A stretch of 62,255 nucleotides of DNA, the filler included. It is 7 parts of 7 records of this genome, joined end to end, with 100 filler letters (N's around TTAATTAATTAA, not from the genome) between each part and the next. Parts side by side here need not be neighbours in the genome. Positions count along the whole stretch, not along the records: positions 34,487 to 40,485 come from SRR31147125_26882; 6 more parts are not named here. One strand, 5' to 3'. The notes under the pieces are model-generated. The model ran no database searches, was not told where the DNA came from, and saw nothing but the letters and a program-made list of their open reading frames with translations. The position numbers were made by a program, and so were the translations under genes. Position 1 is the stretch's first letter. The number at the start of each line of letters is the position of its first letter. Below are positions 5,385 to 62,255 of this stretch, piece by piece.

Positions 5385-6453
5385 TTACTGGTTTAAACCC
5401 AAAGCAGGAAGTTGATCCACCTGATTTTGAGGATACGGCAAATACATATCACTTTCTGTAAAAGTCCTTCCGTCATAGCTTAATTCATCGAACTCTCCAA
5501 GCCTTACCATATCGTAATATCGAGTTCCCCATTCCATGGCCAATTCTGCAAATTTTTCGTCCATTACCTGGTCGTTTGTTACACCGGAAAGATTGGATAA
5601 ACCGGCACGTGCCCTTACGGCATTAACAGCAGCATCGGCAGTCATCGTAGAACTGCTTGCCCCTTGTGTTAATGCTTCTGCATGCATTAATAATATTTCT
5701 GCATACCTGATACAGGTAAAGTTTTTATTATTGCCGTAACTGGTTCTTCCTTCAGTAAGTTGGTCAGAAGGTAAATAATGTTTTCCACTGGCAAACATTG
5801 CCCTGGCATAATCGTTAATAACATCTCCTGATGGAGTTGTATTTGAAATCCAATCCGGTAGGGTTGCGTAATTAGGGTCTGTTTTAATTTCGGCGATACC
5901 GCGATCGGTAAAAAGCACACTTGTTTCCAGACGGGTTTGTTCACCCCTGTCTAGCATAAACTTAATCCATTTAATACTAGGTTCGTAAAAACCCCAGCCA
6001 CTGCCTGCGCCAGAAACCTTTGGTGTCCATCCCTGCGGGCCAAAGAAAGCAAAGAGGTAACTTTTTTGGTCTCCGGATCCTTGTCCAAAATCAGAATACT
6101 GTAGTTCCAGGATATTTTCATTGTTAAGCTTTCCCTGAATTTTGAACAGCTCATAAAAATCAGGTTCCAGCGTAAACTCTCCCGAACCAATAATTTCTGA
6201 AGTGGCATCTGCAACAGCCTGGTAATTTTTCAATTCGAGGTTAGCCAAGGCTTGCATTGCAAGTGCAGTGTATTTCGTAACACCACCTGTAATATCAGTT
6301 CGTTCGTTGGGGTGCATATCCGGCAATAAACCTTTCACCTCATCCATTTCGTCGGAAATGTGTTGCATAACCTCATCTTTTGTCGCTACAGGTGCAACAA
6401 GAAGATCAGACGGATCGGAACTTGTTGGGATAAAGATGTCTCCCCATACCCTG
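5385..6453 (-). CDS. susD: RagB/SusD family lipoprotein (5' truncated by contig end)
   Basis: Frame is open to the contig edge (RVWGDIFIP...). C-terminal motifs IRYAEILLMHAEA, NAVRARAGL, ELAMEWGTRYYDMVR, LPYPQ. Confidence 0.9.
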
Positions 6454-6553
6454 NNNNNNNNNNNNNNNNNNNNNNNNNNNNNNNNNNNNNNNNNNNNTTA
6501 ATTAATTAANNNNNNNNNNNNNNNNNNNNNNNNNNNNNNNNNNNNNNNNNNNN
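6454..6553. other. Artificial contig spacer
   Basis: 44 N + TTAATTAATTAA (stops in all six frames) + 44 N; composition changes across it. Confidence 0.98.
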
Positions 6554-6565
6554 AAAAGATAAACA

Positions 6566-22032: not shown

Positions 22033-22132
22033 NNNNNNNNNNNNNNNNNNNNNNNNNNNNNNNNNNNNNNNNNNNNTTAATTAATTAANNNNNNNNNNNN
22101 NNNNNNNNNNNNNNNNNNNNNNNNNNNNNNNN
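22033..22132. other. Artificial contig spacer
   Basis: 44 N + TTAATTAATTAA + 44 N. Confidence 0.98.
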
Positions 22133-27677: not shown

Positions 27678-27777
27678 NNNNNNNNNNNNNNNNNNNNNNN
27701 NNNNNNNNNNNNNNNNNNNNNTTAATTAATTAANNNNNNNNNNNNNNNNNNNNNNNNNNNNNNNNNNNNNNNNNNNN
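27678..27777. other. Artificial contig spacer
   Basis: 44 N + TTAATTAATTAA + 44 N. Confidence 0.98.
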
Positions 27778-34386: not shown

Positions 34387-34486
34387 NNNNNNNNNNNNNN
34401 NNNNNNNNNNNNNNNNNNNNNNNNNNNNNNTTAATTAATTAANNNNNNNNNNNNNNNNNNNNNNNNNNNNNNNNNNNNNNNNNNNN
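34387..34486. other. Artificial contig spacer
   Basis: 44 N + TTAATTAATTAA + 44 N. Confidence 0.98.
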
Positions 34487-34997
34487 AAAAGAGTATCAAA
34501 AAGCCGAATCATTTTTTACATCGATTCTAGAGAAAAGCAAGGATCCAACCATTCAAAGTATTGCCCGATATAACCTTGCCTGCACAAAACTGAGTCGGCA
34601 TGAAACCGAAGCTGATGTTGAAAAAGCAATGAAGTTATTTCGCCAGTGGCATCTATCGGAACCGGCGAATACTATGGGTGCGAATCATCTGCTGTTGATA
34701 CGGAGTCTCCGGGAATTGGTGGATGTAAAAAAACAAAATCAATCTGATTACGTTAAAATAAAACGGAAGTTGACGAAACGTTTGAAGCGGCAGAAAGGAA
34801 AAATGGAGACGCTTTATAAACAACAGAAAGGAAAAAATCAACAACAAGAAGAAATAATAAAACAACAGGAAGAAACAATTATCCAACAAGAAGAAACAAT
34901 CTTCGAGTTGGTAGACATGATAGAAACCCTTCAGTATCAAATTTCTGAACTTGAAAATTTAGATCAGGAGATTCAAGAAAAGAGGAAAGCAAATTGA
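34487..34997 (+). CDS. TPR/coiled-coil protein, QseG(YfhG)-like (5' truncated)
   Basis: Frame is open from the edge (KEYQKAESFF...ARYNLACTKL); heptad coiled coil; C-terminus LENLDQEIQEKRK; overlaps the response-regulator start (TTGA). Confidence 0.55.
34842..34904 (+). repeat. 3 x 21-bp in-frame tandem repeat (heptads QQEEIIK/QQEETII/QQEETIF)
   Basis: CAACARGAAGAAAYAAT units at 34842, 34863 and 34884. Confidence 0.8.
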
Positions 34998-36349
34998 ATG
35001 GACAGAAGAATATATTGATCGTCGATGATGATCCCAACATCCTTGAAGTCCTCGATGCCAGACTGACGGCAGCTGGATTCCAGGTTCAAAAAACGAGCAA
35101 TGCAAAAGCAGCCATTCAATTGCTCGACAAAGAACCGATTTCTCTCATGATTTCGGATATGAAAATGCCGGCTATGAACGGTATGGATCTTCTTTCTGAA
35201 GTAAAACGGAAATGGCCTGATCTTCCTGTTATCTTTTTGACGGCATACGGCACCATTCCCGGTGCTGTAGACGCATTGAAAGAAGGCGCTGTCGATTACA
35301 TTTCAAAACCATTTGACGGAAGGGAGCTGATTTCTAAAATCAATGACATTTTTCTCAAGAATCCATCCATAATCAGGGCTTCCGAGTCCTCCACCATAGA
35401 AGATGATTTTTATTGGGGGAAAAGCCCGGCCATGCAATCGCTTTTTCAGACGGTCAAAAAAGTGGCCGTAACCCATGCAAATGTCCTGATCCTTGGGGAG
35501 AGCGGCGTCGGCAAGGAACTCATTGCAAAATACATTCATCGCCATAGTTTAAAAAAGGATCATCCCTATATTGTCGTTGACTGTGGATCCACCCCTGCAG
35601 GGATTTTGGAAAGCGAACTTTTCGGACATATGAAAGGCGCGTTTACCAATGCGGTGCAGGACAAAAAAGGGCTTATTGAAGCGGCAGATAAAGGGACTTT
35701 GTTTTTGGATGAAATCGGGAATATCTCACAGGATATGCAAAGCCGGCTGTTAAGGTTTCTTGAAGATAAAAAGATACGACGGGTCGGCGCCATAAAAGAG
35801 ATCGATGTGGATTGCAGAGTGTTGTCGGCAACGAATGCAGACCTTCTCGCCGAGATCGAGGAAGGAAAGTTTCGCCAGGATCTTTACTACAGGCTGAAGG
35901 TGGTTACGCTTATCATTCCCCCATTGAGGGAACGGAAAGAAGATATTCTTGACCTGGCTCGTTTTTTGGCAGAAAAATATACTTTGAAAAATGCCTTCCC
36001 AAGAGTTGAATTTACACCTGACACAATCGAATTGATAGAAAACTACGATTGGCCCGGCAATGTTAGAGAGCTGAAGAATGCTTTGGAAGCCGGTATTATT
36101 TTGTGTAAAAACAACAAAATAGAACCAACCGATCTGCAATTGGAAACGACCCGGGAAGAAGCAACACCCATTTCCGATAACAACGCCGAATTTTCTATTG
36201 GGGATAGTGAAAAAAACACCATTATGCGTGCTCTTAAAGAGACCAATGGCGTTCAGAAAAGGGCGGCGGATCTTTTGAACATCAGCAGGCGGTCCATTCA
36301 TTACAAAATTAAAAAATACAATATTGACGTATCTGAATTTAAAAGTTGA
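34994..36349 (+). CDS. sigma54-dependent response regulator (NtrC family, GlrR/QseF-like)
   Basis: REC (VDDD, D-MKMP, LTAYGTIP, KP); AAA+ GESGVGKE, ESELFGHMKGAFTNA, LDEIG, FRQDLYYRL, WPGNVREL; Fis HTH. Confidence 0.92.
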   Translation: MNGQKNILIVDDDPNILEVLDARLTAAGFQVQKTSNAKAAIQLLDKEPISLMISDMKMPAMNGMDLLSEVKRKWPDLPVIFLTAYGTIPGAVDALKEGAVDYISKPFDGRELISKINDIFLKNPSIIRASESSTIEDDFYWGKSPAMQSLFQTVKKVAVTHANVLILGESGVGKELIAKYIHRHSLKKDHPYIVVDCGSTPAGILESELFGHMKGAFTNAVQDKKGLIEAADKGTLFLDEIGNISQDMQSRLLRFLEDKKIRRVGAIKEIDVDCRVLSATNADLLAEIEEGKFRQDLYYRLKVVTLIIPPLRERKEDILDLARFLAEKYTLKNAFPRVEFTPDTIELIENYDWPGNVRELKNALEAGIILCKNNKIEPTDLQLETTREEATPISDNNAEFSIGDSEKNTIMRALKETNGVQKRAADLLNISRRSIHYKIKKYNIDVSEFKS

Positions 36350-36474
36350 GTAGAGGGTGATCTAAGTCGGCCATTGTAGGAATCCCTTGCAGGTAGGCAA
36401 TATTTGGCAATCGTAAGGGATTCTCCCTACAAAAAAGGGGCCGAAAATTGAATTAAAGCCTGTTGGGTAAGAAT

Positions 36475-36513
36475 AAAAAAAGGGAGACGAGTATATTTTG
36501 TTACTCCCCTCCC
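36475..36513 (-). terminator. Rho-independent terminator after the IS1634-derived gene
   Basis: Minus strand reads GGGAGGGGAGTA-loop-TACTCGTCTCCC-T7, ~27 nt after the stop at 36540. Confidence 0.65.
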
Positions 36514-36539
36514 CCGCTGATGCCTTAATATGAACGGGC

Positions 36540-37576
36540 CTATTGCCTTCGCGTATATGGCACAATCTGGTAAAAGCATGAAACTGAATCACCCAATAAT
36601 GAGAGTACGTTTCTTCGCAGATCATTAAGGTCTTCGCCCTCCATTAAAACTTTTATTTGTTGCCCCTTTTTGATTGAAACATGGTTGATGCCTTCCAGCA
36701 TTTTAAAAACCTGTCTCATCGAGTGGCGTTCTGAGAGTTGCTTTCCTTGATTAGGAATTGTTTCATCCAGCCCTTCCAACGCTTTTCGAAATCGCCTTTG
36801 TACCGTGGAATAAACAAGCAATGACAGTGTCATGACCAGTATCAGCCCTTCTATGCGGCTTGTTTTTTCAAGAAAGAATGAAGAAGCAAAACATAAGGGG
36901 CTGTTCAAAAAGCCAAACCCCTTCTCAATATTTTCCTTCACCACATAACGAGGACCGTCCAGCTCGCTCCAAACTTCCATGATCGGTTTCGACGGATTTT
37001 TGGAAATACTGTTTTCATCATTATTTTCAGTCAGGAACCTCATCAAAAGTGGGATTCCGCCATCTTGAGACAGCATTAATTCCAATCCCACCCGGTTTTG
37101 ATCCGACGGGTGATCTTTCGAATAACCATTGGTAATGGCAACGGTTTGAGTGTCTTCATCAAGATGATACTGACCTGTCAAAGAAAACGTGCGGCTATCT
37201 TTACAAGCAGAATCACAATCCACTTGTTCCTTTCGGCAAGTTGACGCTGCCAATGTCTCAAACAGTTTCTCACATCCGAAAGAGGAAACTGCATCCAGAG
37301 TACGCGTTAAATTCACTTGATTGAAATGCTCTGCCCTTATGCCCGGTCTAAATAGAATGTCCAGTGGTTTGTTTTCAAAAAAACGGGGGTCAAAGAAAGC
37401 GTTCGATCCGTAAATCCAAGCGCATTTAGAATCATACCGGCAAGCACTTCACCGTGACTGATCTTGGCTGTCTTCTTTGTGCCTAAGAGAGTATCGATTT
37501 GTTCTATCAGTTTAAGATCTTTTATGATACCGGAGACAACACCGAAATGATCTAATCGGCTAATTTTAAGATCCAT
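36540..37576 (-). mobile_element. IS1634-family transposase derivative (DUF4277 N-terminus), internally deleted, ~345 aa after repairing one homopolymer indel near 37377-37389
   Basis: RLDHFGVVSGII, GMILNALGF.DR.LSLTP, GYSKDH, SQDGGIPL, EKGFGFL.SP..FASS.FL.K..RIEGL..VMTLSLLVYS. Central region is missing at the PRYVV|KENIE junction (~36938). No terminal repeats seen. Confidence 0.85.
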
Positions 37577-37830
37577 CGCCCTTTTTCTATTTTTTTAGCT
37601 AATTTGGGGTTTGGATAAGAGGAGATACCGTCGTTTTTTAAATTAAAGGATCTGTGCAATGAGGGAAGAAATTGTCGTGCAAACCCGTGGATGCCCATTT
37701 TATCGAAGTCAGCCTGATTGCTGTTCTCATCGGTTTCCAATTGAGTCATTTCCTCATTGGTCAACTGAAACTCCGGCAGATGGGTTAAACCGTAAAAAAA
37801 TAGAGTTGTTGCAAGTGCTTCCATGATCAT
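37552..37830 (-). CDS. Hypothetical 92-aa protein, possibly the N-terminus of the IS1634-derived protein
   Basis: AAGGA RBS before ATG 37830; overlaps the transposase-like start. One extra A at 37582-37586 or 37590-37596 would fuse the two frames. Confidence 0.5.
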   Translation of the reverse strand: MIMEALATTLFFYGLTHLPEFQLTNEEMTQLETDENSNQADFDKMGIHGFARQFLPSLHRSFNLKNDGISSYPNPKLAKKIEKGRWILKLAD

Positions 37831-37952
37831 TGATCCTTTTTAAAATTAGAAACTTATTATCAAATCAAACTATTTGTAAATTTTATGCCGATGAGAATAC
37901 CGATCCACAGTATGGAAATGGATATGTGATCTCTGCTTTTGCGTACTATTAA

Positions 37953-37968
37953 CGCAATGATTGTGCCT
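37953..37968 (-). promoter_or_regulatory. sigma54 -24/-12 promoter
   Basis: Minus strand reads AGGCACAATCATTGCG = GG-N10-GC with TTGC, ~120 bp upstream of ORF 37830. Confidence 0.7.
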
Positions 37969-38034
37969 GTTTTTTTAAGCGATTGAAATAACAATAAAAA
38001 TCAATATATAGTGGTGGTATGAAAAGAGTGCTCG

Positions 38035-38071
38035 TTACAAGAATTTCACACTGGATTACAATTCTTGCACA
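38035..38071 (-). promoter_or_regulatory. Tandem enhancer-like sites for a sigma54 activator
   Basis: TTACAAGAATTTCACA (38035-38050) and TTACAATTCTTGCACA (38056-38071), 21-bp spacing. An IHF-like AATCAATATATAG near 38000 lies between them and the promoter. Confidence 0.55.
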
Positions 38072-38191
38072 TAGTACACTGCCTTACCGAAACTGAAAAA
38101 AATAAAATTGAGGATTAGATCATGCCGCGTGTTTTGTGATGGATTCCCTAGGGACTGATAATCGGAGTTATCGTGTGCTCTTTTGCGCTGC

Positions 38192-38221: not shown

Positions 38222-38247
38222 CGCCGCAACAGTGCAATTTTGCATTG

Positions 38248-38346
38248 ATGGACTGGGGGAGCCGAGGGAAAATCGGCTGAGAGGAAACGTCAATCCGTTT
38301 CGACCCCTTGAACCTGATCCAGGTCGTGCTGGCGTAGGGAAGTCAA
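38248..38346 (+). ncRNA. TPP riboswitch (THI element)
   Basis: GGGGGAGCC...GGCTGAGA...ACCCCTTGAACCTGATC...GCGTAGGGAAG, upstream of thiM. Confidence 0.95.
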
Positions 38347-38555
38347 CGGTATCCTCATTTCTCTTCCTTATCATTTGTTACACCACCTGCCATTAGTGTT
38401 AATCATCAATCAAACAAGCTGTTCAATGGTTCATGCATTGTTCATGTACTAAAATGAACTCCCATAACGGGGTTCCATTTTCATGGTTGATTCAAGTGAT
38501 CAACGCTCGCGTCTAAAACTGCCTTGCCGGAGTAATAAAATTATGGAGAGTTGCA

Positions 38556-39403
38556 ATGAGTATCCAACCATCAGAGATATTTAAAGATATTCAAAATATC
38601 AGAAAAACCGCCCCCTTGGTTCACAACATCACCAATTACGTGGTGATGAATAATACAGCAAACGCGTTACTGGCCATTGGGGCATCACCGGTCATGGCCC
38701 ACGCCGTTCCGGAAGTTGAAGATATGGCGGGCATTGCCGGATCCCTGGTGATCAACATCGGCACTTTGAGCGAACAGTGGGTCAAAGCCATGTTCAAAGC
38801 GGCTGAGGTGGCAAAAAAAGGGAAATACCCATTGTCATCGATCCGGTTGGGGTGGGGGCAACTCCGTACAGAACCGAAACCGCCAAGGCATTGATCTTGG
38901 AGACAGCACCAACGATCATTCGGGGAAATGGCTCGGAAATCATGGCGTTGTGGGGCGCCTTGGAAACGAGCTTGCCATCTGAATCCGACAAAGTGAGCGA
39001 CACGTCAGAGGGGATTTCCACCAAAGGGGTGGACAGTAGCAGTGGATCGGACCAGGCCGTTGAGAGCGCAAAAGTCCTTGCAGAAAAAATTGGATGCACG
39101 GTCTGCATTTCCGGAGAGACGGATTATATCGTTTCATCTCATGGAATTCATTCCATCAAAAACGGCCATACCATGATGCCCAAAGTGACGGGACTCGGCT
39201 GTACCGCCACGGCCTTTTGTGGTGCTTTTGCCGCAGTCAACACCGATTTTGACGCTGCAACGGCCCATGCCATGGCTGTCATGGGAATTGCCGGTGAGAT
39301 TGCCGCTGAAACCGCACCCGGCCCGGGAACACTTCAGCTCAATTTCATTGATGCCTTATACGGATTATCCGAATCGGATGTCGATACTCGTTTCAAAAGA
39401 TAA
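38556..39403 (+). CDS. thiM: Hydroxyethylthiazole kinase (frameshift at A7, 38813-38819)
   Basis: [47 protein letters not shown]. Adding one A restores [14 protein letters not shown]. Confidence 0.92.
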
Positions 39404-39466
39404 TCCGATATCAACAACTTAAAAAAATGAATCGGATCTTCTCACCGTCAACTTGGGAGATTGAAC

Positions 39467-40273
39467 ATGAAATCATATTTTAAAGCCCTGACCATTGCAG
39501 GATCGGACAGCGGCGGAGGTGCAGGCATTCAGGCCGATCTCAAAGCCTTTTCCGCCCTTGGGTGTTTTGGCATGTCCGCCATCACCGCACTGACCGCCCA
39601 AAATACAACCACCGTTACGGCCATCCATCCGGTTCCGCCGGAGTTTATCGGTGATCAGATTGACGCCGTAATGGATGATATCGGCACCGATGCCGTAAAA
39701 ATCGGGATGCTTCACTCGCCTGAAGTGATCGAAATGGTGGCGAAGAAGCTGGAACAATGGCAATGCAAAAATATCGTTCTCGATCCGGTAATGATTTCCA
39801 AAAGCGGCAACAAGCTGCTTCTGGACGATGCCGTTCAGGCATTGACGTCAACACTGATTCCCCTTGCCACCGTTATTACGCCGAATCTCCCTGAGGCGTC
39901 GGTGCTGCTGGGACGAGAAATCACTACCATGGAGGATATGGATCCGGCAACTAGGGAGCTTTCCGATCTGGGATGCAATAACATTCTGCTGAAAGGCGGG
40001 CATCTGGAGCAAAAAGAGAGTTGCGACCTTCTCTATATGAAAGAGAGTAGCAGCCTGACAAGATTTCCCGGTACACGCATCGACACTCCCAACTCCCACG
40101 GTACCGGATGCACGTTGTCTTCGGCTCTTTGTGCCAATCTTGCAAAAGGTCTCGATCTTGTCACCGCAGTGGAAAATGCGAAATCATACATCACCCATGC
40201 CTTGAAATCCGGGGCTGAGTACAAAACCGGAAAGGGGCATGGGCCGGTGAAACACTTCTACCGATTCTGGTAG
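39467..40273 (+). CDS. thiD: Hydroxymethylpyrimidine/phosphomethylpyrimidine kinase
   Basis: LTIAGSDSGGGAGIQADLK, VKIGML, TPNLPEA, KGGH, HGTGCTLSS, GHGPV. Confidence 0.95.
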   Translation: MKSYFKALTIAGSDSGGGAGIQADLKAFSALGCFGMSAITALTAQNTTTVTAIHPVPPEFIGDQIDAVMDDIGTDAVKIGMLHSPEVIEMVAKKLEQWQCKNIVLDPVMISKSGNKLLLDDAVQALTSTLIPLATVITPNLPEASVLLGREITTMEDMDPATRELSDLGCNNILLKGGHLEQKESCDLLYMKESSSLTRFPGTRIDTPNSHGTGCTLSSALCANLAKGLDLVTAVENAKSYITHALKSGAEYKTGKGHGPVKHFYRFW

Positions 40274-40485: not shown

Positions 40486-40585
40486 NNNNNNNNNNNNNNN
40501 NNNNNNNNNNNNNNNNNNNNNNNNNNNNNTTAATTAATTAANNNNNNNNNNNNNNNNNNNNNNNNNNNNNNNNNNNNNNNNNNNN
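40486..40585. other. Artificial contig spacer
   Basis: 44 N + TTAATTAATTAA + 44 N. Confidence 0.98.
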
Positions 40586-42710: not shown

Positions 42711-43323
42711 ATGGATAACATAAAAAATAATTCTACTGATAATATATTGTGGCATAAAGTGATGGATGGCGATATAAGGGCAATTGAAGAAATTTATATT
42801 AAATATTCTGAAAGGCTTTATCAATACGGATTAAAATTTATAACAAATATCGAACTTATTGAAGATTGTATTCAGGAATTATTTGTTCGTTTAATAAAAA
42901 ATCATAAAAGTTTAAATGAAGTAAATAATATCGAAACCTATTTGCTAAAGGCTTTTAGAAATAATCTTTTTAGAATGGTTTCCCGAGAAAATAAATATTT
43001 TTTAAGTAATTCTGAAGAAGTTGATTTTAATGTCCATTTTTCCGCTGAAAACAAATTAATTCAAGAAGAAGAAAAAAATAAAACACAAGATCTTGATTGA
43101 TGGTCTTAATAAATTATCTGAACGTCAAAAAGAAGCAATTTATCTCCGTTATACGCAAGGACAAAGTTATGAAGATATTTCATTAATTATGAATATGAGT
43201 GTTGAGTCTTGCAGAAATAGTGTTTACCGGGCAATTAAATCATTAAGATCTAATTTAAATAAATCGGATTTAATTTTTTTATTGTTATTTCAGAAAAAGT
43301 TTCAAATAATAGAAAAAAAGTGA
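42711..43323 (+). CDS. ECF sigma-70 factor (frameshift at A7, 43072-43078)
   Basis: Region 2 EDCIQELFVRL...YLLKAFRN; region 4 LSERQKEAIYLRY..G.SYEDI; precedes FecR. Confidence 0.88.
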
Positions 43324-43372
43324 TGATATAATTTAGGTTTATGTCTCTTATGAGATATAGATTAAAAATTAT

Positions 43373-44559
43373 ATGAAAAAGTACAGATATTTTAGTATCG
43401 AACAATTTGCCACCGACTCCGATTTTATTAAATGGGTAATCGATGCTGATGCTTCTTCTAACAAATTCTGGAAAAAGGTTATAGAAGATTACCCTGAACA
43501 AAAAAGGAATATCGAAGAAGCTGTTAAACTTATTTTATCCATTCAAGCGGTTGAAGAACCAATTTTAAAAGAAAGATTAGATTTAACTTGGGAAAGAATA
43601 AGAAATACCGAAAAAGTTCAACTGCTAAAATTAAATTGCATCAAATTTCATTGCGCTGGGTAGCAGTGATGTTGCTTCTTATAGGCATTTCATTTATTGT
43701 AACTCGTATTGTTATTGTTGATAAATCAAATATCGAAATTGTTGAAACAGAAATACTTCAAATTGAGGATGCAAAAGTTATATTACCTGATGGCTCAGAA
43801 AAGACTATAAATAATAGTGAATCTCAAATTGATGTAAAATCAACAGGTGAGATTATCGTAGACAATGATACTTTAAAAAGTTCTGTTGAGAAAAATAAAA
43901 ATGCAAATTTAGTTAAAGTTATAATGCCTTTTGGAAAGCAGTCAAAACTACTATTACCCGATGGTTCTACTGTATATATCAATGCAGGCAGTCAGTTATC
44001 ATTCCCTTCAGAATTTACAAAAAAAACAAGGGATGTATATTTAATAGGTGAGGCATTTTTTGAAATTGAAAAGAATGAAAATCAACCTTTTGTTGTAAAA
44101 ACTTCTGATGTTGATATAACTGTAACCGGTACAGAATTTAATGTATCTGCTTATTCCGATGATAATATTGTTCAAACTATTCTTGTGGCTGGAGGAGTTA
44201 GTTTATCGAAAAAATCGGCATTTAGTAAAACCATTGAAATTAAACCTGGAGAAGGAGCCTTTTTTAATAAAACAGAAGATAAAATTAGCATCAATAATGT
44301 TGATACCAATAAATATACTGCATGGATAAATGGTTACATAGTTTGTGATCAAGATAAGATGACAGAGATAATTAAGAAAATTGAACGGTTTTATAATAAG
44401 GAAATCATTATAGATGAAACAATTCAAGAAATTACCTATTCGGGAAAATTGGATTTAAACAATAGTATTTCCTCCATATTAGAATCATTAACATATACAA
44501 CCCCTTTAGCAATTGAATATAACGATGAAACTATATTAATTAAAAACAAAAACTTATGA
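43373..44559 (+). CDS. FecR-family anti-sigma factor (frameshift at A5, 43611-43615)
   Basis: F.TDSDFIKWV N-terminus, TM helix, LPDGSTVYINAGSQL, GEAFFEI, VTGTEFNV. Confidence 0.9.
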
Positions 44560-44614: not shown

Positions 44615-44668
44615 GTGAGAAAATTTTAACGACCTAAAGGTCAATTATCAATTTTAACATTCAAATTT

Positions 44669-47600
44669 ATGAAAAAAAACGTTGAATCTGGTTCTGTAAT
44701 AGGACTGAAAAAGCTACTATTAATTATGAAGTTAATGTTTATTTTACTGACTTCTTCAATTATTGCAGTAAGTGGGAATTCATATTCTCAAATAACTAAA
44801 CTTTCAATTAATATGAATGAAACATCCATTTTGGATATTTTTGATGTTATTGAGAGTCAAAGTGAGTTTATTTTCTTTTATCAAGATAAAAATGTTGATG
44901 AAAATAGAAAAGTAACCATTGAAGCTAAAAACAAAAGCATTGAAGAAATTCTGCAATTGTTGTTTGAAGGAACAGGTAATACCTATGAAATTAAAGATCG
45001 TCAGGTAATTATTGGTTTTGATGAAACAAAAATTGAAAAATCGAAGAAGGATTTAGAAAAGCCATTCGGTGCAGAAATAGAACAACCACAGGGTAAAACC
45101 ATACAAGGGAAAGTAATTGATAGTAGCGGGCAACCACTGCCTGGTGTAACAGTTATTTTAAAAGAAAACACAGCAGTTGGTACTGTTACAAACTTTGAAG
45201 GATTATACGAGCTACTAATACCCATTGATGCCGAAGTTTTGGTGTTTTCATTTATAGGTTTTGCGAGTCAGGAAATTATTATTGAAGGACGTACATCTAT
45301 AGATGTTATATTGGAAGAAGAGGTTACAGCTCTTGATGATGTTGTAGTCGTTGGGTATGGAACAACCACACGCCGAAACTTTACGGGGTCGGTAACAAAA
45401 CTAAATCTTAACAATTCACCAGTAACAAATAGTTCAAGTGTAAATGCATTAGATTTGTTTAGGGGCATTACTTCAGGAGTTAGTATGACTCAGTCTGGCG
45501 AAGCAGGAGATACGCCTTCTTTAGTAATTCGTGGACAAAAATCAATAAGCGGTGGTAGTGATCCTCTTATAGTTGTTGACGGAGTAATTTTTACTGGTAC
45601 CATTGATATGCTTGATATAAAAAGTATTGAATCAATGAGTGTTTTGAAAGATGCTACATCACTGGCAGCTTATGGTTCTCAGGCAGCAAATGGTGTAATT
45701 ATGGTAACTACAAAAAAGGGATCTCGTGGGAAACCAATGGTTAATTTATCCTCTTTTATAGCAATTTCAGGGCCGAATTTTAAACCTGATATGAGAAATG
45801 GAAATGAATTTATTGAGCTTCTTAATGCTCGCTTTTTATATCCTGCAGACGCTGATCCGGTCTGGATGTCTGAATTAGAGTATAATAATTATAATGTTGG
45901 TAGAACCACAGACTGGTTTGATTATATTACTCGCATAGGAGTTCAACATAATACTGCATTGAGTGTTTCCGGTGGAACTGACAACGTCAATTATTATCTC
46001 GGTGGTTCTTATATTGATAACCAAAACTTTATAAAGGGTGACTCTTATGCAAGAAATACTTTTACTGGAAGGATAAATGCGAAAATAAATGAATATATCT
46101 CGTTAAGTGGAAACTTTGATCAGGCCTTTATGCAAAATGATGGTGTAAGACCAACATATAATGCTGCAGTTACATTATCTCCTTGGGCAGAGCCAGAATT
46201 ACAAGATAGAAGTATTCGTAAATATGTTGATGGAAAAGAAGAAACTACTTTGAATCCTATGTGGGATGTATACAGCGGAATTGATCGGCAAAACCATTCT
46301 AACTCTACTGTATTGGGAGGTAAAATCGAAGTTAAATTTCCTTGGATTGAAGGCTTAAGCTATAAAATAACAGGATCTTATACAAAATACAATACAACCT
46401 TTAAGAATTTTGTACACGAGTCAAATTATGTTAACATTAGTTTGGGAGAAGATGCTTATACTACAGCAGAACAGGATAAATACCTGAGCCAGGCCAGTGG
46501 ATATATTACACAAACACAAAGAACATCATGGGTAATCGATAATATTTTAACATACGCAAGAAACATCAATGATCATTATATTAATACAACACTGGTTTAT
46601 ACCAGAGACTCCAGAGAAGTTGAGGCTAATAGAATGACAGGAACCGATTTTTCTGCAATTGGCAATACTTCTTTAGGTGTTTTTGGACTTGCAAATGCAA
46701 GTGTTCATACAATATCTAATTTTAATTATTCTTTGCACAATGATGTAGGTTATTTGGGTAGAATAAACTATTCCTATAAAAATACTTATCACCTTAATGC
46801 TTCTGTTCGTCATGATGGAAGTTCTGTATTTGGTATTGATCATAAATGGGGCACATTTCCGGCAGTCGGTGTTGCATGGACTCTTTCAAATGAAGAGCTT
46901 ATGAAAAATGCGAACTGGTTAAATAATCTTAAACTTAAAGCTTCCTGGGGCAAAAACGGAAATCAATCACTTCGTCCTTACGGAACTCTCTCAACAATGA
47001 CTATGGGAAGGACTGGGGGTGTTGGTTACTTCTTTGATAATGAGGTTGTTTATGGTCAGTTAGTGTCGGCTTTAGGAAATAGTGAACTAGGCTGGGAGTC
47101 TACAACTTCATATAATTTTGGGCTGGAAACTGATATAATAAACAGTCGTATTCATTTTGAAATTGATGGTTACAAATCAATAACTACCAATCAAATTTTT
47201 AATCGTACAATTCCTGTTATGGGGGCTGGTATTACTTCTCAATCAGCTACTATGGGGCAAGTTGATAACTGGGGAATAGAAGCAATGGTGAATACAACAA
47301 ATATTCAAAATAATAAATTTAGTTGGTCATCATCAGCGGTCTTTACTATTAATCGTAATAGACTTGTTGAATTATATGGTGATGGGAATGACGACGTTTC
47401 AAATACACTTTTTCTTAATCACTCACTTGGTGCAATTTACGGGTATAATTGGATAGGTATTGTTCAGGAAGAAGATACAGAATACATAGCTGCAAATGGT
47501 GTAAAACCAGGAGACGCGATGTATGAAGATCTGAATGGTAATATCGAAATAGATGCCGACGACCGTAAAATTATTGGTTATTCCAAAGAAAATTTTCGGT

Positions 47601-48046
47601 TAAGTATTTCAAATACATTTAATTATGGCAATTTTCAGCTTTACGTAATGTTAAATGGTATTTTTAGTGGCAATGATTATGGTAAGGCTACTAATAATAT
47701 GTCTTACTTGTCATATGAAGGATATGGTTATCGGAATACGCTTGACCATCCTTTCTGGACAGAAGAAAATAAAAGTGAAACATATCCTTCAGTTAATTTT
47801 TCTGATACAAAATTTACAGCACTTCAATCTTATGGTTTTGTAAGATTGCAGGATGTAAATCTTTCATATCAATTTAATAGTGATAAACTTGATAAAATTG
47901 GTATTAGCTCCCTCGAGCTATTCCTTTCGGGAAAGAATCTTTGGTTTTATGCACCAAATTGGACAGGTAGTGATCCAGAGGTTAGAAGTTACTCCTCTGC
48001 GCAATTACCAAGAACATGTACATTGGGCATTAATTTAGGGTTTTAA
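44669..48046 (+). CDS. susC: SusC/RagA TonB-dependent transporter with N-terminal STN signalling domain
   Basis: STN domain, CarboxypepD_reg-like domain, VVVGYG, PLIVVDG, LKDA.S.A.YGS.AANGVI.VTTKKG, C-terminal GINLGF. Confidence 0.95.
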   Translation: MKKNVESGSVIGLKKLLLIMKLMFILLTSSIIAVSGNSYSQITKLSINMNETSILDIFDVIESQSEFIFFYQDKNVDENRKVTIEAKNKSIEEILQLLFEGTGNTYEIKDRQVIIGFDETKIEKSKKDLEKPFGAEIEQPQGKTIQGKVIDSSGQPLPGVTVILKENTAVGTVTNFEGLYELLIPIDAEVLVFSFIGFASQEIIIEGRTSIDVILEEEVTALDDVVVVGYGTTTRRNFTGSVTKLNLNNSPVTNSSSVNALDLFRGITSGVSMTQSGEAGDTPSLVIRGQKSISGGSDPLIVVDGVIFTGTIDMLDIKSIESMSVLKDATSLAAYGSQAANGVIMVTTKKGSRGKPMVNLSSFIAISGPNFKPDMRNGNEFIELLNARFLYPADADPVWMSELEYNNYNVGRTTDWFDYITRIGVQHNTALSVSGGTDNVNYYLGGSYIDNQNFIKGDSYARNTFTGRINAKINEYISLSGNFDQAFMQNDGVRPTYNAAVTLSPWAEPELQDRSIRKYVDGKEETTLNPMWDVYSGIDRQNHSNSTVLGGKIEVKFPWIEGLSYKITGSYTKYNTTFKNFVHESNYVNISLGEDAYTTAEQDKYLSQASGYITQTQRTSWVIDNILTYARNINDHYINTTLVYTRDSREVEANRMTGTDFSAIGNTSLGVFGLANASVHTISNFNYSLHNDVGYLGRINYSYKNTYHLNASVRHDGSSVFGIDHKWGTFPAVGVAWTLSNEELMKNANWLNNLKLKASWGKNGNQSLRPYGTLSTMTMGRTGGVGYFFDNEVVYGQLVSALGNSELGWESTTSYNFGLETDIINSRIHFEIDGYKSITTNQIFNRTIPVMGAGITSQSATMGQVDNWGIEAMVNTTNIQNNKFSWSSSAVFTINRNRLVELYGDGNDDVSNTLFLNHSLGAIYGYNWIGIVQEEDTEYIAANGVKPGDAMYEDLNGNIEIDADDRKIIGYSKENFRLSISNTFNYGNFQLYVMLNGIFSGNDYGKATNNMSYLSYEGYGYRNTLDHPFWTEENKSETYPSVNFSDTKFTALQSYGFVRLQDVNLSYQFNSDKLDKIGISSLELFLSGKNLWFYAPNWTGSDPEVRSYSSAQLPRTCTLGINLGF

Positions 48047-48091
48047 GAATTAAGGATTATGATCATTAAAACAAAATTAAAAAAGGTGATT

Positions 48092-49056
48092 ATGAAAAAT
48101 TTGAAATATAAATTATTATTTCTGGCGTTTATTACAATATTTATTGGTTGTAATGATGACCAGTTTCTCGAAGAACAACCAAAAACTATTTATACAACCA
48201 AAAATGCTTTTGATAAAAGTAGTCAGGTTGATGCACAACTCGTATCTGCATATCAGGTGATGTACACAATGCATGGCTATGGCATGGAATCCACTACTAA
48301 CGCAAGTGTTGCAAACTTTTTAGGTGGTATAGGTTCTGACTATTTTGATATTTACTACGAATTGGCAGGTAACGGTGCTTCCGGCTGGTCAAATTTTGCA
48401 AATTGGACGACTGTTGATGAAAGATTTAATAACCTTTGGAATGCTAATTATAAATTGATAAGCTTTGCAAACCTTGCTTTGTTTGGTGCAGATCAGGTAG
48501 AATGGAATAATATTTCAGATAAAGATTACGCAATTGCGCAGGCTAAATACTTTCGCGGTTATGCTTACCTGCGTCTTGCTGAATGTTTTGGAGGAGTTCC
48601 TTTGGTTGAAGAATTTACAGAAACTTTAAAGTTGGACTATACCCGTGCTTCACGAACCGAAACGTATGAATTTGCTATAAGTGATTTGGAAGATGCCGTG
48701 GCCGGACTTCCCGATTACCCTCTTCAGGATGGACGTGTGGCTAAAGGTGTAGCCGAACACTTTTTGGCTGAAGCTTATCTTGCACAAGGAATTGAATCAG
48801 GAGAAAGTTCATATTATCAGAAAGCTATCGATGCTGCAAAAGAAACTATATCTCTTCATCCATTAATGACTGAACGTTTTGGTGCTCGCGCAAATCCCAA
48901 TGATGGATCCTCAAATAACAGTGTGCCGGCTTACAAATCGGAAGGTAACGTTTTTTATGATTTGTTTCAGATTGGGAATTATGACTTTAGTGAAGGTAAT
49001 ACCGAAGCAGTTTGGACTATTGAATGTGTTGATTATGACGCTTATGTAGAAAGTGG
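48092..49056 (+). CDS. susD: SusD/RagB lipoprotein (3' truncated)
   Basis: Lipobox FIGC, AKYFRGYAY..L...FGGVPL, GRVAKGVA...LA.AYL. Confidence 0.92.
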
Positions 49057-49156
49057 NNNNNNNNNNNNNNNNNNNNNNNNNNNNNNNNNNNNNNNNNNNN
49101 TTAATTAATTAANNNNNNNNNNNNNNNNNNNNNNNNNNNNNNNNNNNNNNNNNNNN
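49057..49156. other. Artificial contig spacer
   Basis: 44 N + TTAATTAATTAA + 44 N. Confidence 0.98.
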
Positions 49157-56875: not shown

Positions 56876-57972
56876 TTATTGTAGAAGTTCGTTTAGCTTA
56901 TCTTCAAGTTGTTTACCGCGAAGATTCTTGGCAATAATTTTACCTTCAGGATCAAGCAAGATGGTATGAGGAATTGAACTCACTCCATACAAACGAGCTA
57001 CTTCATTTTGCCAATATTTCAAATCGGAAACATGGGTCCAACTTAACTTATCATCTTCAATGGCTTTTAACCAAACAGTTTTTTCTCTATCCAACGAAAC
57101 ACCTAAAATGTCAAACCCTTTATCTTTAAACTGATTGTAAACCCGAACAACATTGGGGTTTTCCTGACGGCAAGGGGCACACCATGAAGCCCAAAATCAA
57201 TTAAAAGATATTTCCCTCGGAATGAAGATAGTGTGATTGGGTTTCCTTCTGGATCATTCATGGTAAAGTCTGGAGCTTCAGCTCCTATAGATGAAACAGC
57301 CATTTTATCAGTAATCTTTTTAAGTTCTATCAAATAAATAGACTCATCTAATTCAACCGGAAACAAATCAACTAATTCTTTCAATTCTTCATACTGAAGT
57401 TGTTGAACCAATTGTGAAAGTGTAATAAAAGGAGCAACAACAGAAGTTGAATTATCTCGTACAAAGTTTTTTGCAAAAACCTTCATATTTTCGGAGGTAG
57501 CCTCTAAATCAATTTGCACACGATCAATTTCATCCTGATTTCCTCTCTGCATTGCTGCTGAATATTGCTTTTTAAGATCACTAAATTGATTGCTTAATAA
57601 TTCAAGTTCATCCAAATAAATATTAAAAACATCAGTCTCTGGTGACCCGGCAACTGTTGAATTTCGAAGGCTATCTTTAAAAGTTTCAACTTCAATTTTT
57701 TCATTTTCAAGAAAAAACTGAGCAAAATAATCACGTTCGTTCAACCTTAAATAATGCAATTCGGGTATTTTGGTCTCTCCTGAAAAACTAAATTGTCCAT
57801 CCTCAATATTCGAAGTATCAACTGTTACAGCATTTCCTGCTTCAGCTTTTACCAGATAAACAACACCTGAATCGAGGCCAACAATATTTCCGGAGATTTT
57901 GTAGCTTGTATTATTACTTTGGCAAGCGGCAATAACAACCAAAAGGATAAGCAACAAATTGAGATTTTTCAT
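56876..57972 (-). CDS. TlpA-like thiol:disulfide oxidoreductase lipoprotein with DUF4369 (frameshift at 57193-57196)
   Basis: Lipobox IAAC. Adding one T restores IDFWASWCAPCRQENP and joins the C-terminal WTHVSDL...IPHTILLDPEGKIIA. Confidence 0.88.
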
Positions 57973-59096
57973 TCTTTATTTTTTTGAGATTGATAATAAT
58001 AGTCTAGTAAATTACGGGCAGCTACGAACGAACTTATTTCTTCATTTAAAACCTTTTCTTCAAAATCATCAGTCATAAGTTTTAACTCCTTATTTTGGTA
58101 AAAATTACTTTTTAACTGATCATTAATGGTTTCATACATCCAATATTTAGACTGCTCATTTCTTTTGTGCTGAAAGTAGCCATTTGCTTTTACAAAATCA
58201 AGATATTCTTTTATAGTATCCCATACATCTGAAATTCCTTTCTTTTCAACTGCTGAACAAGTTAGCACCTTTGGTTTCCATCCAGAATCTGTTGGAGGGA
58301 AAAGATGAAGTGCATTCAAATATTGAACACGAGCCATATCTGCTTTTTGAATATTCGAACCGTCGGCCTTGTTGATGGTAATTGTATCAGCCATTTCCAT
58401 AATACCGCGCTTAATCCCTTGCAATTCATCTCCAGCCCCAGCCAACATTAAAAGCAGAAAGAAATCGACCATGGAATGAACAACTGTTTCACTTTGCCCA
58501 ACCCCTACCGTTTCTATAAAGATGTTATCAAAACCGGCAGCTTCACAAAGAATAATCGTTTCTCGGGTTTTACGAGCAACCCCACCCAATGATCCTGCAG
58601 AAGGCGAAGGTCGGATATATGCATTGACATCCGCCGACAATTCTTCCATCCGGGTTTTATCACCCAAAATACTTCCTTTCGATCGTTCACTACTTGGATC
58701 AATTGCCAATACTGCAAGTTTACCACCTTTTCCGGTAATATATTTCCCCAGAGACTCAATAAAGGTACTTTTACCTACTCCGGGAACACCTGTGATTCCT
58801 ATACGTACCGAGTTGCCGCTATGAGGCAGACACTTTAAAATGATTTCCTGCGCCAATTCCTGATGATCTTTTTTAGCACTCTCCACCATTGTAACTGCCT
58901 GGCTCAACAATGTAATGTTTCCATCAAGAATTCCGGTTACATATTCATCGGCTGACAATAACTTCTTTCGCTTATTTTTAAGAAAACGCTGAATTGAATC
59001 TTCATCAAAAGAAGAAGGTTGTTCAACCCCATCATTAACTGATAATCCCTTATATTGATCTTCGTTTTCGATATGTTTTTTCTGTTTTTCTGCCAC
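57969..59096 (-). CDS. meaB: Methylmalonyl-CoA mutase-associated GTPase MeaB
   Basis: GITGVPGVGKST, DPSS..S.GSILGDKTRM, ETVGVGQSE, GDELQGIKRG, NKAD. Confidence 0.93.
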   Translation of the reverse strand: MAEKQKKHIENEDQYKGLSVNDGVEQPSSFDEDSIQRFLKNKRKKLLSADEYVTGILDGNITLLSQAVTMVESAKKDHQELAQEIILKCLPHSGNSVRIGITGVPGVGKSTFIESLGKYITGKGGKLAVLAIDPSSERSKGSILGDKTRMEELSADVNAYIRPSPSAGSLGGVARKTRETIILCEAAGFDNIFIETVGVGQSETVVHSMVDFFLLLMLAGAGDELQGIKRGIMEMADTITINKADGSNIQKADMARVQYLNALHLFPPTDSGWKPKVLTCSAVEKKGISDVWDTIKEYLDFVKANGYFQHKRNEQSKYWMYETINDQLKSNFYQNKELKLMTDDFEEKVLNEEISSFVAARNLLDYYYQSQKNKE

Positions 59097-60282: not shown

Positions 60283-60522
60283 CAGTAACAAGTTTTTAAT
60301 TCTTTCAGTAAATTGTCAAATAGTAATTCTTAACGAAATACTTTTCAAACTTTCGCTCAAAGATAATAATCAATCGCGAAAATGTAATTTTACCTACAAA
60401 TCTAAAAAAACTGGAGCCCTGTTGATGTTAATGCGCACAAACTTTTGTTAATGATTTGTTAAATGAACTTTTTCTCTGAAAAATTCAGTAGTTTCGTGGT
60501 TCTCAAGGGGAAACAAATAAAG

Positions 60523-61887
60523 ATGGGAAGGAATACAATACGGTTTGTAATTGTACTGGCTACATTATCAGTACTGGGGATTTTAATGATTCAGTTTTTC
60601 TTTTTGAAAAACACGGTCGACCTTAATGAAAAGAAATTTCATGAATCAACTACCTGTGCTCTAAAGCAAGTTGCGACACATCTTGTTGACTATAACAACA
60701 AAATATTTAGTCATAAAAACCAACTTGAATTAGACAATACTGTTGAGCAAATATCCAACAATTACTATGTAGTTAATGTAAATGATGTTATCCACCCAGG
60801 ATTGCTTGAACATTTTCTAGTTAAGGAATTTAAGAAGCAGAATCTAAATGTAGACTTTGAATATGCCATTTATGATTGCAATAGCGAGAATATGGTGTTT
60901 GGAAAATATTTGAAAGAAGAAAGTGACAGTTTGCTAAACATCATAAAAAAAGAAAAAATACAAACTGAATGTGATACTGAAGAAGCTGTTTTCGAAGAAC
61001 ATTATAAGATCAAAAAAATTGAAAGCACTTGCCATTTACCCAAATGTAAAAAATACACCTACTATTTTGGGGTTTCATTCCCTAACCGATCAAAATTCTA
61101 CAGTGCACAGGTTAAAGCATGGTATTATATCACCGGGTTTCTATTCATTATAATTTTGTTTTTTGGATATACAATTAGTGTAATTTTAAAACAACGCAAA
61201 CTAAGTGAAATACAAAAAAATTTCATCAATAACCTTACTCACGAATTCAAAACGCCAATAGCATCCATTGATCTTTCTGCCAAAGTACTATCTGATCCTG
61301 GAATTATTGAGCATCCAACTAGACTTACTAGTTATTCAAAAATAATTAGTGAACAAACACAGCGACTCTCTTCGCAAGTTGAAAAGGTACTTCAGATGGC
61401 AACCATTGAAAAGAAGAAGCTTCAACTTGACAAAGAAGAAATCATATTAAATGAGTTTATACCAAAAACGATAGATGAATTTAAAACCAGCCTTAATGGG
61501 CACCAATATAACATTCAGGTTTCCGGATCGGAGCATAGTCTGATCATCATAGCTGATAAGCTTCACTTTTCTAATGTTATTTTTAACATTCTCGATAATG
61601 CATTAAAATATTGCGATACCACCCCAGAAGTAGTAGTTGATATCAGCAGTAATAAACACCATGTTTTTATAAGATTTTCTGATAATGGCATTGGCATTCC
61701 AGAAGAATTTAGGAAGAAAATATTTGGTCGTTTTTTCCGTATACCAACAGGCAACATACATAACGTAAAAGGCTTTGGGCTTGGACTTGATTATGTGAAA
61801 AAAATTGTTGAAAGACACAACTGGAAGATTTCAGTATCGGATAATTCGCCAAAAGGAAGTATTTTTACGTTAACTATTCCAAAATAA
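60523..61887 (+). CDS. Sensor histidine kinase
   Basis: Two TM helices; H-box LTHEFKTPI; N-box NILDNALKY; DNGIGI; FFR; GFGLGL. Confidence 0.93.
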   Translation: MGRNTIRFVIVLATLSVLGILMIQFFFLKNTVDLNEKKFHESTTCALKQVATHLVDYNNKIFSHKNQLELDNTVEQISNNYYVVNVNDVIHPGLLEHFLVKEFKKQNLNVDFEYAIYDCNSENMVFGKYLKEESDSLLNIIKKEKIQTECDTEEAVFEEHYKIKKIESTCHLPKCKKYTYYFGVSFPNRSKFYSAQVKAWYYITGFLFIIILFFGYTISVILKQRKLSEIQKNFINNLTHEFKTPIASIDLSAKVLSDPGIIEHPTRLTSYSKIISEQTQRLSSQVEKVLQMATIEKKKLQLDKEEIILNEFIPKTIDEFKTSLNGHQYNIQVSGSEHSLIIIADKLHFSNVIFNILDNALKYCDTTPEVVVDISSNKHHVFIRFSDNGIGIPEEFRKKIFGRFFRIPTGNIHNVKGFGLGLDYVKKIVERHNWKISVSDNSPKGSIFTLTIPK

Positions 61888-61889
61888 AT

Positions 61890-62255
61890 ATGGATTTTAC
61901 TGGCAAAAAGATTCTTTTAGTAGAAGATGACCAAACTTTAAATTTCATTATCCGTGACAATTTAGAAGAAGCTGGATATGAAGTGAAATCAGCTGAAAAC
62001 GGTGAAGAAGGACTGAAGGTTTTTAATAAAGGCTCCTTCCACCTTTGTTTGTTTGATGTGATGCTTCCCAAAATGGACGGGTTTACTTTGGCTAAAAAAG
62101 TAAGAGAAATAGACCAAAATATTCCCATTCTGTTTTTGACAGCCAAAGCGATGACAGAAGATAAAATTAATGGTCTTACACTTGGTGGTGATGACTATAT
62201 TACCAAGCCATTCAGCATGGAAGAGCTACTTCTTCGAATTAAGGTTTTTTTAAAA
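61890..62255 (+). CDS. OmpR-family response regulator (3' truncated; not in ORF track)
   Basis: MDFTGKKILLVEDD...FDVMLPKMDGF...FLTAK...DDYITKPF, 2 nt after the kinase stop. Confidence 0.92.
   Translation, partial: MDFTGKKILLVEDDQTLNFIIRDNLEEAGYEVKSAENGEEGLKVFNKGSFHLCLFDVMLPKMDGFTLAKKVREIDQNIPILFLTAKAMTEDKINGLTLGGDDYITKPFSMEELLLRIKVFLK

Follow-up and report, generated by a model that had tools for sequence, protein, structure and literature searches.

The window analysed here, a stretch of 62,255 nucleotides (nt) to which all coordinates refer unless another locus is named, carries on its minus strand a gene assigned to the IS1634 family of insertion sequence (IS) transposases, from which much of the catalytic core is missing. 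Since the window consists of separate contigs joined through six linkers of the form N44-TTAATTAATTAA-N44, the usable context of the transposase-derived gene is limited to the 6-kb contig at 34487..40485. A sigma-54 promoter precedes the gene in the same orientation, an intact sigma-54 activator gene adjoins it, and a terminator follows. The features of the locus, including its open reading frames (ORFs), are as follows.

34994..36349, plus strand: convergent NtrC-type response regulator with receiver, sigma-54 AAA+ and Fis-type helix-turn-helix (HTH_8) domains
36473..36515, minus strand: intrinsic-terminator-like hairpin (36515..36480) followed by U7 (36479..36473), 25 nt past the stop codon
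37576..36540, minus strand: transposase-derived ORF, 345 codons after repair of a C run to C6, with the DUF4277 head, the region of the first catalytic Asp, the helix of the catalytic Glu and the C-terminal part still present
36938..36939, minus strand: junction of an in-frame deletion of 199 codons, placed by alignment
37650..37665, minus strand: degenerate left terminal repeat, CCCTCATTGCACAGAT against CCCACATTGAGCAGGT in relatives
37666..37830, minus strand: putative host-side leader ORF with ATG codons at 37830 and 37824 and AAGGA 9 nt before 37824
37954..37967, minus strand: sigma-54 type promoter GGCAC-N5-TTGC (-24 GG / -12 GC), found by pattern scan
38071..38056 and 38050..38035, minus strand: tandem upstream activator sites TGTG-N-TTGTAA, read from the sequence

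As assembled in the window, the gene is broken into two ORFs, 37576..37337 (79 amino acids, aa) and 37316..36540 (258 aa; frame open up to 37448). A single DUF4277 domain (PF14104; E values of 2.5e-20 and 4.4e-10 for the two pieces) runs across the break, with profile positions 2-67 falling to 37576..37340 and 66-108 to 37376..36543. The contigs of a separate assembly, that of a public run (X1) holding 97% of the sampled words of the stretch, were used for comparison; X1 may share the sample of the window and represents an independent assembly, not an independent organism. Among the runs listed for the stretch none was an RNA run. One X1 contig of 13,179 nt spans all 5,999 nt of the 6-kb contig with no substitutions and three one-base homopolymer insertions, located in the C run at 37389..37385 (C6), the A run at 37596..37590 and an A run of thiM. 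The second of these turns A7 of the window (37590..37596, minus strand) into A8, the extra letter sitting behind plus-strand position 37589. Once the three letters of X1 are put in, the transposase-derived ORF runs open through 345 codons and thiM is restored, while the ORF from ATG 37830/37824 enters the transposase ATG in frame, so that 430 codons are open up to the stop at 36540. The frameshift in the transposase-derived gene is an assembly error. The original prediction had held that one homopolymer repair would open an ORF of ~345 aa free of premature stops across 36540-37576; the open frame was reproduced in the second assembly, and the repair itself was moved to the C run, next to a T run. 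The locus also serves as a warning that frameshifts in the window assembly are homopolymer errors. Another X1 contig joins 36069 to 39137, skipping 3,067 bases (depth 22.9, shorter side 26 letters, 90% likeness). This joint fell below the limit of trust and was not used; it probably represents another organism or a repeat.

Protein searches returned 85 longer relatives, the best of 539-546 aa with E values down to 4.6e-105, some of them labelled IS1634 family transposase by NCBI. Identity to the closest full-length relatives was 57-64%, and in a tree the gene fell inside a clade of IS1634-family relatives with an SH-aLRT value of 87 (100 in an 18-row set). By homology the gene derives from an IS1634-family transposase, a member of an emerging family split from IS4 according to an excerpt of De Palmenaer et al. 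(2008, PMC2266710). Alignment with the relatives of 539-546 aa was collinear at both ends, with 199 columns absent between ...PRYVV and KENIEKGFGFL; relatives read PRY(L/V)(I/V) before the gap and (D/E)(H/N)(V/I)EKGFGF after it. The match at both ends and the jump from GPRYVV to KENIEKGFGFL had been foreseen in the original prediction, and the junction was fixed at 36939/36938. The deletion takes in the second catalytic Asp (within MDS or ADS in relatives) at its start, again as predicted, and stops just before the catalytic Glu. The long N3-C1 spacer has gone with it, as have two residues, Tyr and Gln, of the Y-Q-E-K motif; the same excerpt (PMC2266710) gives the spacer as characteristic of the IS1634 family and the motif as part of the family description. 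The first Asp region and the Glu are still present, with Asn in place of the Lys that follows the catalytic Glu, and the only other indel relative to the full-length proteins is an insertion of two codons. Two further motif changes that had been noted earlier, DHRPDLKQ to DHPSDQNR and GN..D to EN..E, are real in the alignment.

No match to PF01609 (DDE_Tnp_1) was obtained at E ≤ 0.01 when the gene pieces were searched against Pfam, and the complete DDE triad on an RNase-H-like core described by that family is not present. At 345 codons against 539-546 aa in relatives, the product also falls short of the ~500-600 aa with a long N3-C1 spacer of an intact enzyme. Judged from the residues lost, the transposase derivative is catalytically dead. 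The gene is a derivative of the IS1634 family and not a working member of it. The ESM Atlas yielded DDE transposase clusters only and nothing new. Since the G+C fraction of the remnant (0.41-0.44) resembles that of the regulator gene, base composition was uninformative.

The gene is present as a single copy in the window and in the X1 contigs: tblastn and blastn detected no second copy in the 62-kb window, and X1 contained no second near-identical copy, a single contig lying on the gene at a likeness of at least 90%. In three full-length relatives the terminal repeats are clear and share the core CC(C/G)ACATTGAGCAG. At the corresponding place the window has CCCTCATTGCACAG (37665..37652), then an A-rich leader and the ATG, collinear with the relatives, and three of 13 positions that are invariant in the three relatives have changed. 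The left-end 22-mer scores 14/22, which is the best score in the region and is not significant alone, there being 76 such windows in 124 kb; the left-end remnant is credible because of its position and its collinearity. No match of at least 14/22 to a right end was found in 36200..36540, and alignments to the 3' parts of the relatives were only weak and gapped. Two right-end candidates, CTACCTGC (36396..36389) and a G-rich stretch at ~36521..36506, were dropped as unconvincing. No target duplication was definable at the window locus, and the pair of terminal inverted repeats with a 5-6 bp AT-rich target duplication that marks a mobile element was not found. The earlier statement that no IS ends are visible is upheld for the right end; at the left, the degenerate repeat at 37665..37650 corrects it. 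Single-copy status in the window and X1, together with the decayed ends, amounts to a loss of mobility.

The full-length relatives themselves appear to be flanked by 5-6 bp AT-rich repeats, namely TAAAT in L083 (~1160-1164 and 3183-3187) and TTATAA in L082 (1229-1234 and 3327-3332), the latter a palindrome and hence ambiguous. These repeats fit the 5-6 bp AT-rich target duplications given for the IS1634 family in the excerpt cited above (PMC2266710).

The promoter sequence GGCAC-N5-TTGC at 37967..37954 accounts for the GG-N10-GC site of the original prediction and is the sole exact match in the 62-kb window; with at most one mismatch allowed, 17 matches were found against 11.1 expected. The tandem sites that had been placed at 38035-38071 proved to be two direct copies of TGTG-N-TTGTAA, ~75-105 nt upstream of the promoter, and are presumed to be binding sites of the adjacent NtrC-type regulator. 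A proposed IHF-like site fared less well: three matches were counted in 150 nt against 0.35 expected, all of them weak and with one mismatch. The regulator gene is intact, with Pfam matches to PF00158 (3.4e-66), PF00072 (8.9e-32) and PF02954 (1.8e-13), and its product is presumed to be the activator of the sigma-54 promoter. Its closest relatives in the species collection are found at loci L001 of genome G001 (66% identity) and L002 (61%), both of which share with the window an upstream gene for a coiled-coil, lipoprotein-like protein. This small gene (34629-34997, plus strand) precedes and slightly overlaps the regulator gene, and occurs at 4-597 in L001 and 5376-5942 in L002, with a conserved C-terminal ...DQ(E/K)IxEK(R/K)... 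tail; L002 has a histidine kinase upstream as well. The lipoprotein-like gene is probably the sensory part of the module.

Comparison with G001 bears on the origin of the promoter and its sites. A segment of 33 nt (38074..38042) is 85% identical to L001 3068..3036, which adjoins the G001 orthologue of the regulator gene, and L001 has TGGCAT-N5-TTGC at the equivalent place with a site-to-promoter spacing equal to that of the window. A 21-nt site pattern, searched with at most one mismatch, occurred in one of 401 genomes of the order to which G001 belongs, and this was G001 at the same locus. There the module, downstream of and convergent to the regulator gene, drives an unrelated ORF of 118 aa with a hydrophobic N-terminus; the target ORFs of the relative (118 and 132 aa) gave no Pfam family and no likeness to the window leader. 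As G001 has the same module, with the same spacing, driving an unrelated ORF, the module predates the IS insertion and the remnant fills the slot of its target gene. On this comparison the promoter and its enhancer sites belonged to the host before the insertion, and the idea that they are the gene's own must be abandoned, while control of the gene by the adjacent sigma-54 activator, as originally proposed, is well supported by the same comparison. The locus has the composition of a sigma-54 unit: a GG-N10-GC site, tandem sites kept with G001 and a nearby PF00158 regulator.

Between promoter and transposase start, the leader comprises ~53 codons of non-IS sequence running into the IS left end. 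It is a putative coding sequence with a predicted start codon, and the ORF probably extends upstream of the transposase ATG. The 92-aa upstream reading of the window matched none of 1.84 billion representative proteins and no Pfam family. Downstream of the gene, the predicted intrinsic terminator was confirmed as a hairpin with U7 that folds well (-28 kcal/mol for 106 nt, z -3.1; two of 200 shuffles folded as well). A simple terminator pattern scanner called no terminator at this place, and relatives L082, L083 and L084 showed no such hairpin with U7 in their 3' parts. A second stable hairpin, GUAGGGAGAAUCCCUU...AAGGGAUUCCUAC at 36365-36440 on the minus strand (z -2.7), lies between the terminator and the stop codon of the regulator gene; no U-run follows it on either strand.

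The state of the frame was assessed against the family. The end branch of the gene measures 0.56, compared with 0.035-0.18 for the 15 nearest relatives that share its clade. Among columns on which at least 80% of 67 distant family members agree, 108 in all, the gene departs from the consensus of its own clade at 27, while the sister lineage P0023/P0024 has changed at three and one of them. At the level of at least 95% across all 84 full-length members, 10 of 54 columns have been lost against a median of one. By these measures the transposase-derived copy is old. Departures from the majority residue of the clade amounted to 32, 31, 28, 27 and 22% across five conservation classes, whereas in P0023/P0024 it falls from 36-44% to 0-4%. 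A change in 27 of 108 columns corresponds to ~0.09-0.13 changes per site under free mutation. In simulations of neutral change at 0.086-0.13 per site, the chance of no stop arising in ~343 codons was ~0.01-0.06; a short neutral phase of ~0.02-0.04 per site gave 0.19-0.46. Indels arise at ~0.05-0.2 per substitution. Neutral drift of the size observed would be expected to bring stops and frameshifting indels, yet both indels present (199 and two codons) are in frame. Drift at family-invariant residues with neither stop nor frameshift is unlikely under free decay.

Replacements in the less conserved columns were conservative, with mean BLOSUM62 scores of +0.63 and +0.35 against -0.08 and -0.44 for random change (P = 0.013 and 0.004), and 85 of 94 hydrophobic columns remain hydrophobic. 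Drift was greatest in the core stump, where 12 of 30 conserved columns have changed against 15 of 78 elsewhere (Fisher P = 0.045); identity to the clade consensus is 76% in the N-terminal DUF4277 part and 79% in the C-terminal part against 58% in the stump. Lost conserved residues formed seven clusters along the sequence, which was not significant by permutation (P = 0.14). Because synonymous sites are saturated relative to the relatives (pS 0.67-0.79) and no orthologue is at hand, no direct ratio of non-synonymous to synonymous change (dN/dS) is obtainable for the time since the deletion, and pairwise dN/dS was set aside as a test of selection after that event. An AlphaFold2 model of the 286-aa piece from 17 rows was unusable, with a mean pLDDT of 40.8.

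Orthologues sharing the deletion were sought at several levels. Among database proteins of similar length there were six matches, none with the junction, and none of the 85 longer proteins has the deletion. Within the order of genome G002, six of 401 genomes matched; five had full-length frames of 543-560 aa and one only a 156-aa fragment, none with the deletion. In the order of G001, 10 of 401 genomes matched at no more than 42% identity, again without the deletion. A scan of metagenome contigs with the remnant alone (8-mers including the junction) retrieved no relatives. With an alignment as query the scan retrieved 493, of which 80 were kept (best 55% identity); the nine loci with a contiguous-looking match (L100, L102, L103, L133, L134, L141, L143, L163 and L166) were opened, the other 71 were left unopened, and no opened locus carried the deletion. 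Of the nine, seven turned out to be full-length ORFs (545-581 aa) whose second alignment was spurious, L100 was a broken copy (282 + 355 aa) and L103 was cut at a contig end. An orthologue with the expected deletion and synteny turned up neither among the 802 genomes nor in the metagenome contigs or protein database. Taken literally, this is one of the outcomes named at the outset as refuting the original proposal, but it is a result of low power, since the nearest genome is only 66% identical in the regulator and close relatives are unsampled.

Other features of the window lie apart from the transposase-derived gene. A TPP riboswitch (RF00059, 74.8 bits) at 38245-38357 on the plus strand precedes the genes thiM and thiD (39461-40273). 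It points away from the sigma-54 unit and has no bearing on the transposase-derived gene. Split genes, in the form of adjacent overlapping ORFs, occur in thiM, an ECF sigma factor gene and a thioredoxin-like gene, and in thiM, X1 traced the split to an undercalled homopolymer, the A run that ends at 38812. SusC/SusD-type genes (5388-8707 and 44630-49054) lie on contigs that adjoin others with a multi-haem cytochrome and sigma-54 genes, and the window assembly probably mixes organisms. The linkers and the split ORFs are located as follows.

6454-6553, 22033-22132, 27678-27777, 34387-34486, 40486-40585 and 49057-49156: linkers between the joined contigs
38517-39400 (thiM), 42711-43320, 56879-57975, 43361-44556 and 60463-62255: overlapping ORFs carrying consecutive parts of one Pfam profile or a usual domain pair

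The reading that we favour, to which we give a little less than an even chance, is that the gene encodes a host-controlled, non-catalytic protein kept by selection. An IS1634-family element would have inserted long ago, in the sense direction, into the target-gene slot of a two-component/sigma-54 module made up of the regulator gene, the tandem binding sites and the -24/-12 promoter. It would then have lost 199 core codons in frame, its right end and most of its left end, and with them the ability to move. The remnant may have been retained by selection as a protein composed of a DUF4277 DNA-binding head, an RNase-H-like core stump and a C-terminal helical part, possibly with an N-terminal extension of 85 codons from ATG 37824/37830. 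Transcription would start at the host sigma-54 promoter while the regulator is active and end at the hairpin and U7, and the protein would most likely bind DNA without cutting it, whether as a regulator or as a site-binding protein. The loss of transposase constraints combined with an open, protein-like frame fits what exaptation predicts. Part of the original proposal of a dead transposase recruited as a regulated DNA-binding protein has stood, namely its ancestry, its inactivity and its position in sense behind a sigma-54 promoter; the expected orthologues with the deletion have not been found.

Several points weigh against selection on the frame, and several of them favour a plain relic, in which the IS and a later adjacent deletion destroyed a small target gene and the transposase is now decaying, its frame open by luck. 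The in-frame deletion and the in-frame upstream ORF would then also be due to luck, with promoter and terminator as leftovers of the host unit. The nearly flat change across conservation classes is likewise predicted by decay, and replacements in conserved columns resemble random mutation (-0.44 against -0.68, P = 0.20). No orthologue with the deletion was found, which leaves the usual proof of domestication, conservation across species, missing, and the upstream 85 codons are without any relatives among the 1.84 billion representatives. The argument from indels depends on the general ratio of indels to substitutions given above, and synonymous sites are saturated. A stable fold is doubtful because the deletion takes the middle of the RNase-H-like fold, and neither a PF01609 signal nor a confident model was obtained. 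The ORF was selected for being open, and IS relics are so numerous that chance alone will leave a few of them open. Such relics are very common, while an excerpt of PMC8266576 suggests that domestication of bacterial DDE transposases is barely documented. The module of G001 drives an unrelated ORF, so a host gene has probably been displaced here, and a short neutral phase leaves a fair chance of an unbroken frame. Such a phase, however, misfits the 27 of 108 conserved columns and three of 13 invariant left-end positions that have changed; at the rate these imply, an unbroken frame is improbable and several frameshifting indels would be expected where there are none. Mutation alone would give less conservative replacements in the variable columns than those seen, and the regulator has stayed intact together with its binding sites and the promoter. 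A plain relic is accordingly a serious contender, though we would not put it as high as an even chance. With no orthologue found, and with selection and expression deduced, domestication is a live reading.

Two further explanations are much less probable. The gene could specify a transposition inhibitor, a non-cutting protein whose end-binding head and C-terminal multimerisation part poison or compete with related full-length transposases. The DUF4277 and C-terminal parts are the best kept, compared with the core stump, the second catalytic Asp is gone, and parallels are offered by the inhibitor protein of Tn5 and by KP, an internally deleted repressor of the P element. We nevertheless consider an inhibitor unlikely: neither the window nor the X1 contigs (at a likeness of at least 90%) showed a related active copy or a cognate active element, the best relatives anywhere are only 57-64% identical, the left end that would be bound has itself decayed, and an IS-borne inhibitor has no need of host sigma-54 control. 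That the deletion or fusion is an artefact, a full-length IS misassembled in a poor draft, might be suspected from the error-prone window assembly, with three homopolymer undercalls in 6 kb, further split genes and chained contigs of unlike organisms. The separately built 13,179-nt contig matches the whole 6 kb including the junction without substitutions, and an artefact is extremely improbable.

Eukaryotes are well known to have exapted DDE transposases as host proteins. To our knowledge such exaptation is hardly documented in bacteria, where IS remnants are usually taken for junk. It is possible, if somewhat doubtful, that the core-less DDE transposase is the output of a two-component/sigma-54 circuit, fused to a host-encoded N-terminal peptide to give a signal-controlled DNA-binding protein; this would constitute exaptation of a prokaryotic DDE transposase into a regulatory cascade. 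If the frame is under selection, the locus illustrates a route by which a bacterial circuit can gain an output gene from an insertion sequence, and offers a concrete, testable case with one promoter, one activator and one protein. If it is only a relic, it still shows cleanly how an IS can displace the gene that a sigma-54 module used to drive.

Among known systems, the gene resembles the IS1634-family transposases, with which it shares the DUF4277 head, 57-64% identity, its clade position, the first Asp region and Glu helix, and a left end like the terminal repeat of relatives. It differs from them in that 199 codons are gone, PF01609 is not matched and 10 of 54 near-invariant residues have changed, and from the elements of the family in being a single copy for which no right end or target duplication was found. 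Its surroundings have the form of NtrC-type enhancer-binding protein/sigma-54 modules, with a receiver, AAA+ and HTH_8 regulator and tandem sites ~75-105 nt upstream of a GG-N10-GC promoter; the module of the window drives an IS remnant, whereas that of G001 drives a small secreted-looking ORF. The Tn5 inhibitor and KP are truncated transposase derivatives that act without catalysis, KP arising through an internal in-frame deletion, and resemble the gene in having lost catalytic parts while keeping those for DNA binding and/or multimerisation. Their targets are active copies of the same element within one genome; no such copy was seen here in the window or X1, and the promoter ahead of the gene described here is a sigma-54 promoter of the host, not that of the element. 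Nuclease-dead regulators derived from TnpB are domesticated prokaryotic transposases. TnpA-REP is called the first prokaryotic domesticated transposase in an excerpt of PMC8266576. With TnpA-REP/RAYT (PMC8266576, same excerpt) the gene shares a single-copy, immobile, transposase-derived nature and host control, as it does with the TnpB-derived regulators; those proteins are of HUH or RuvC type and have orthologues in many species, whereas the gene described here is a DDE-type remnant known from a single genome.

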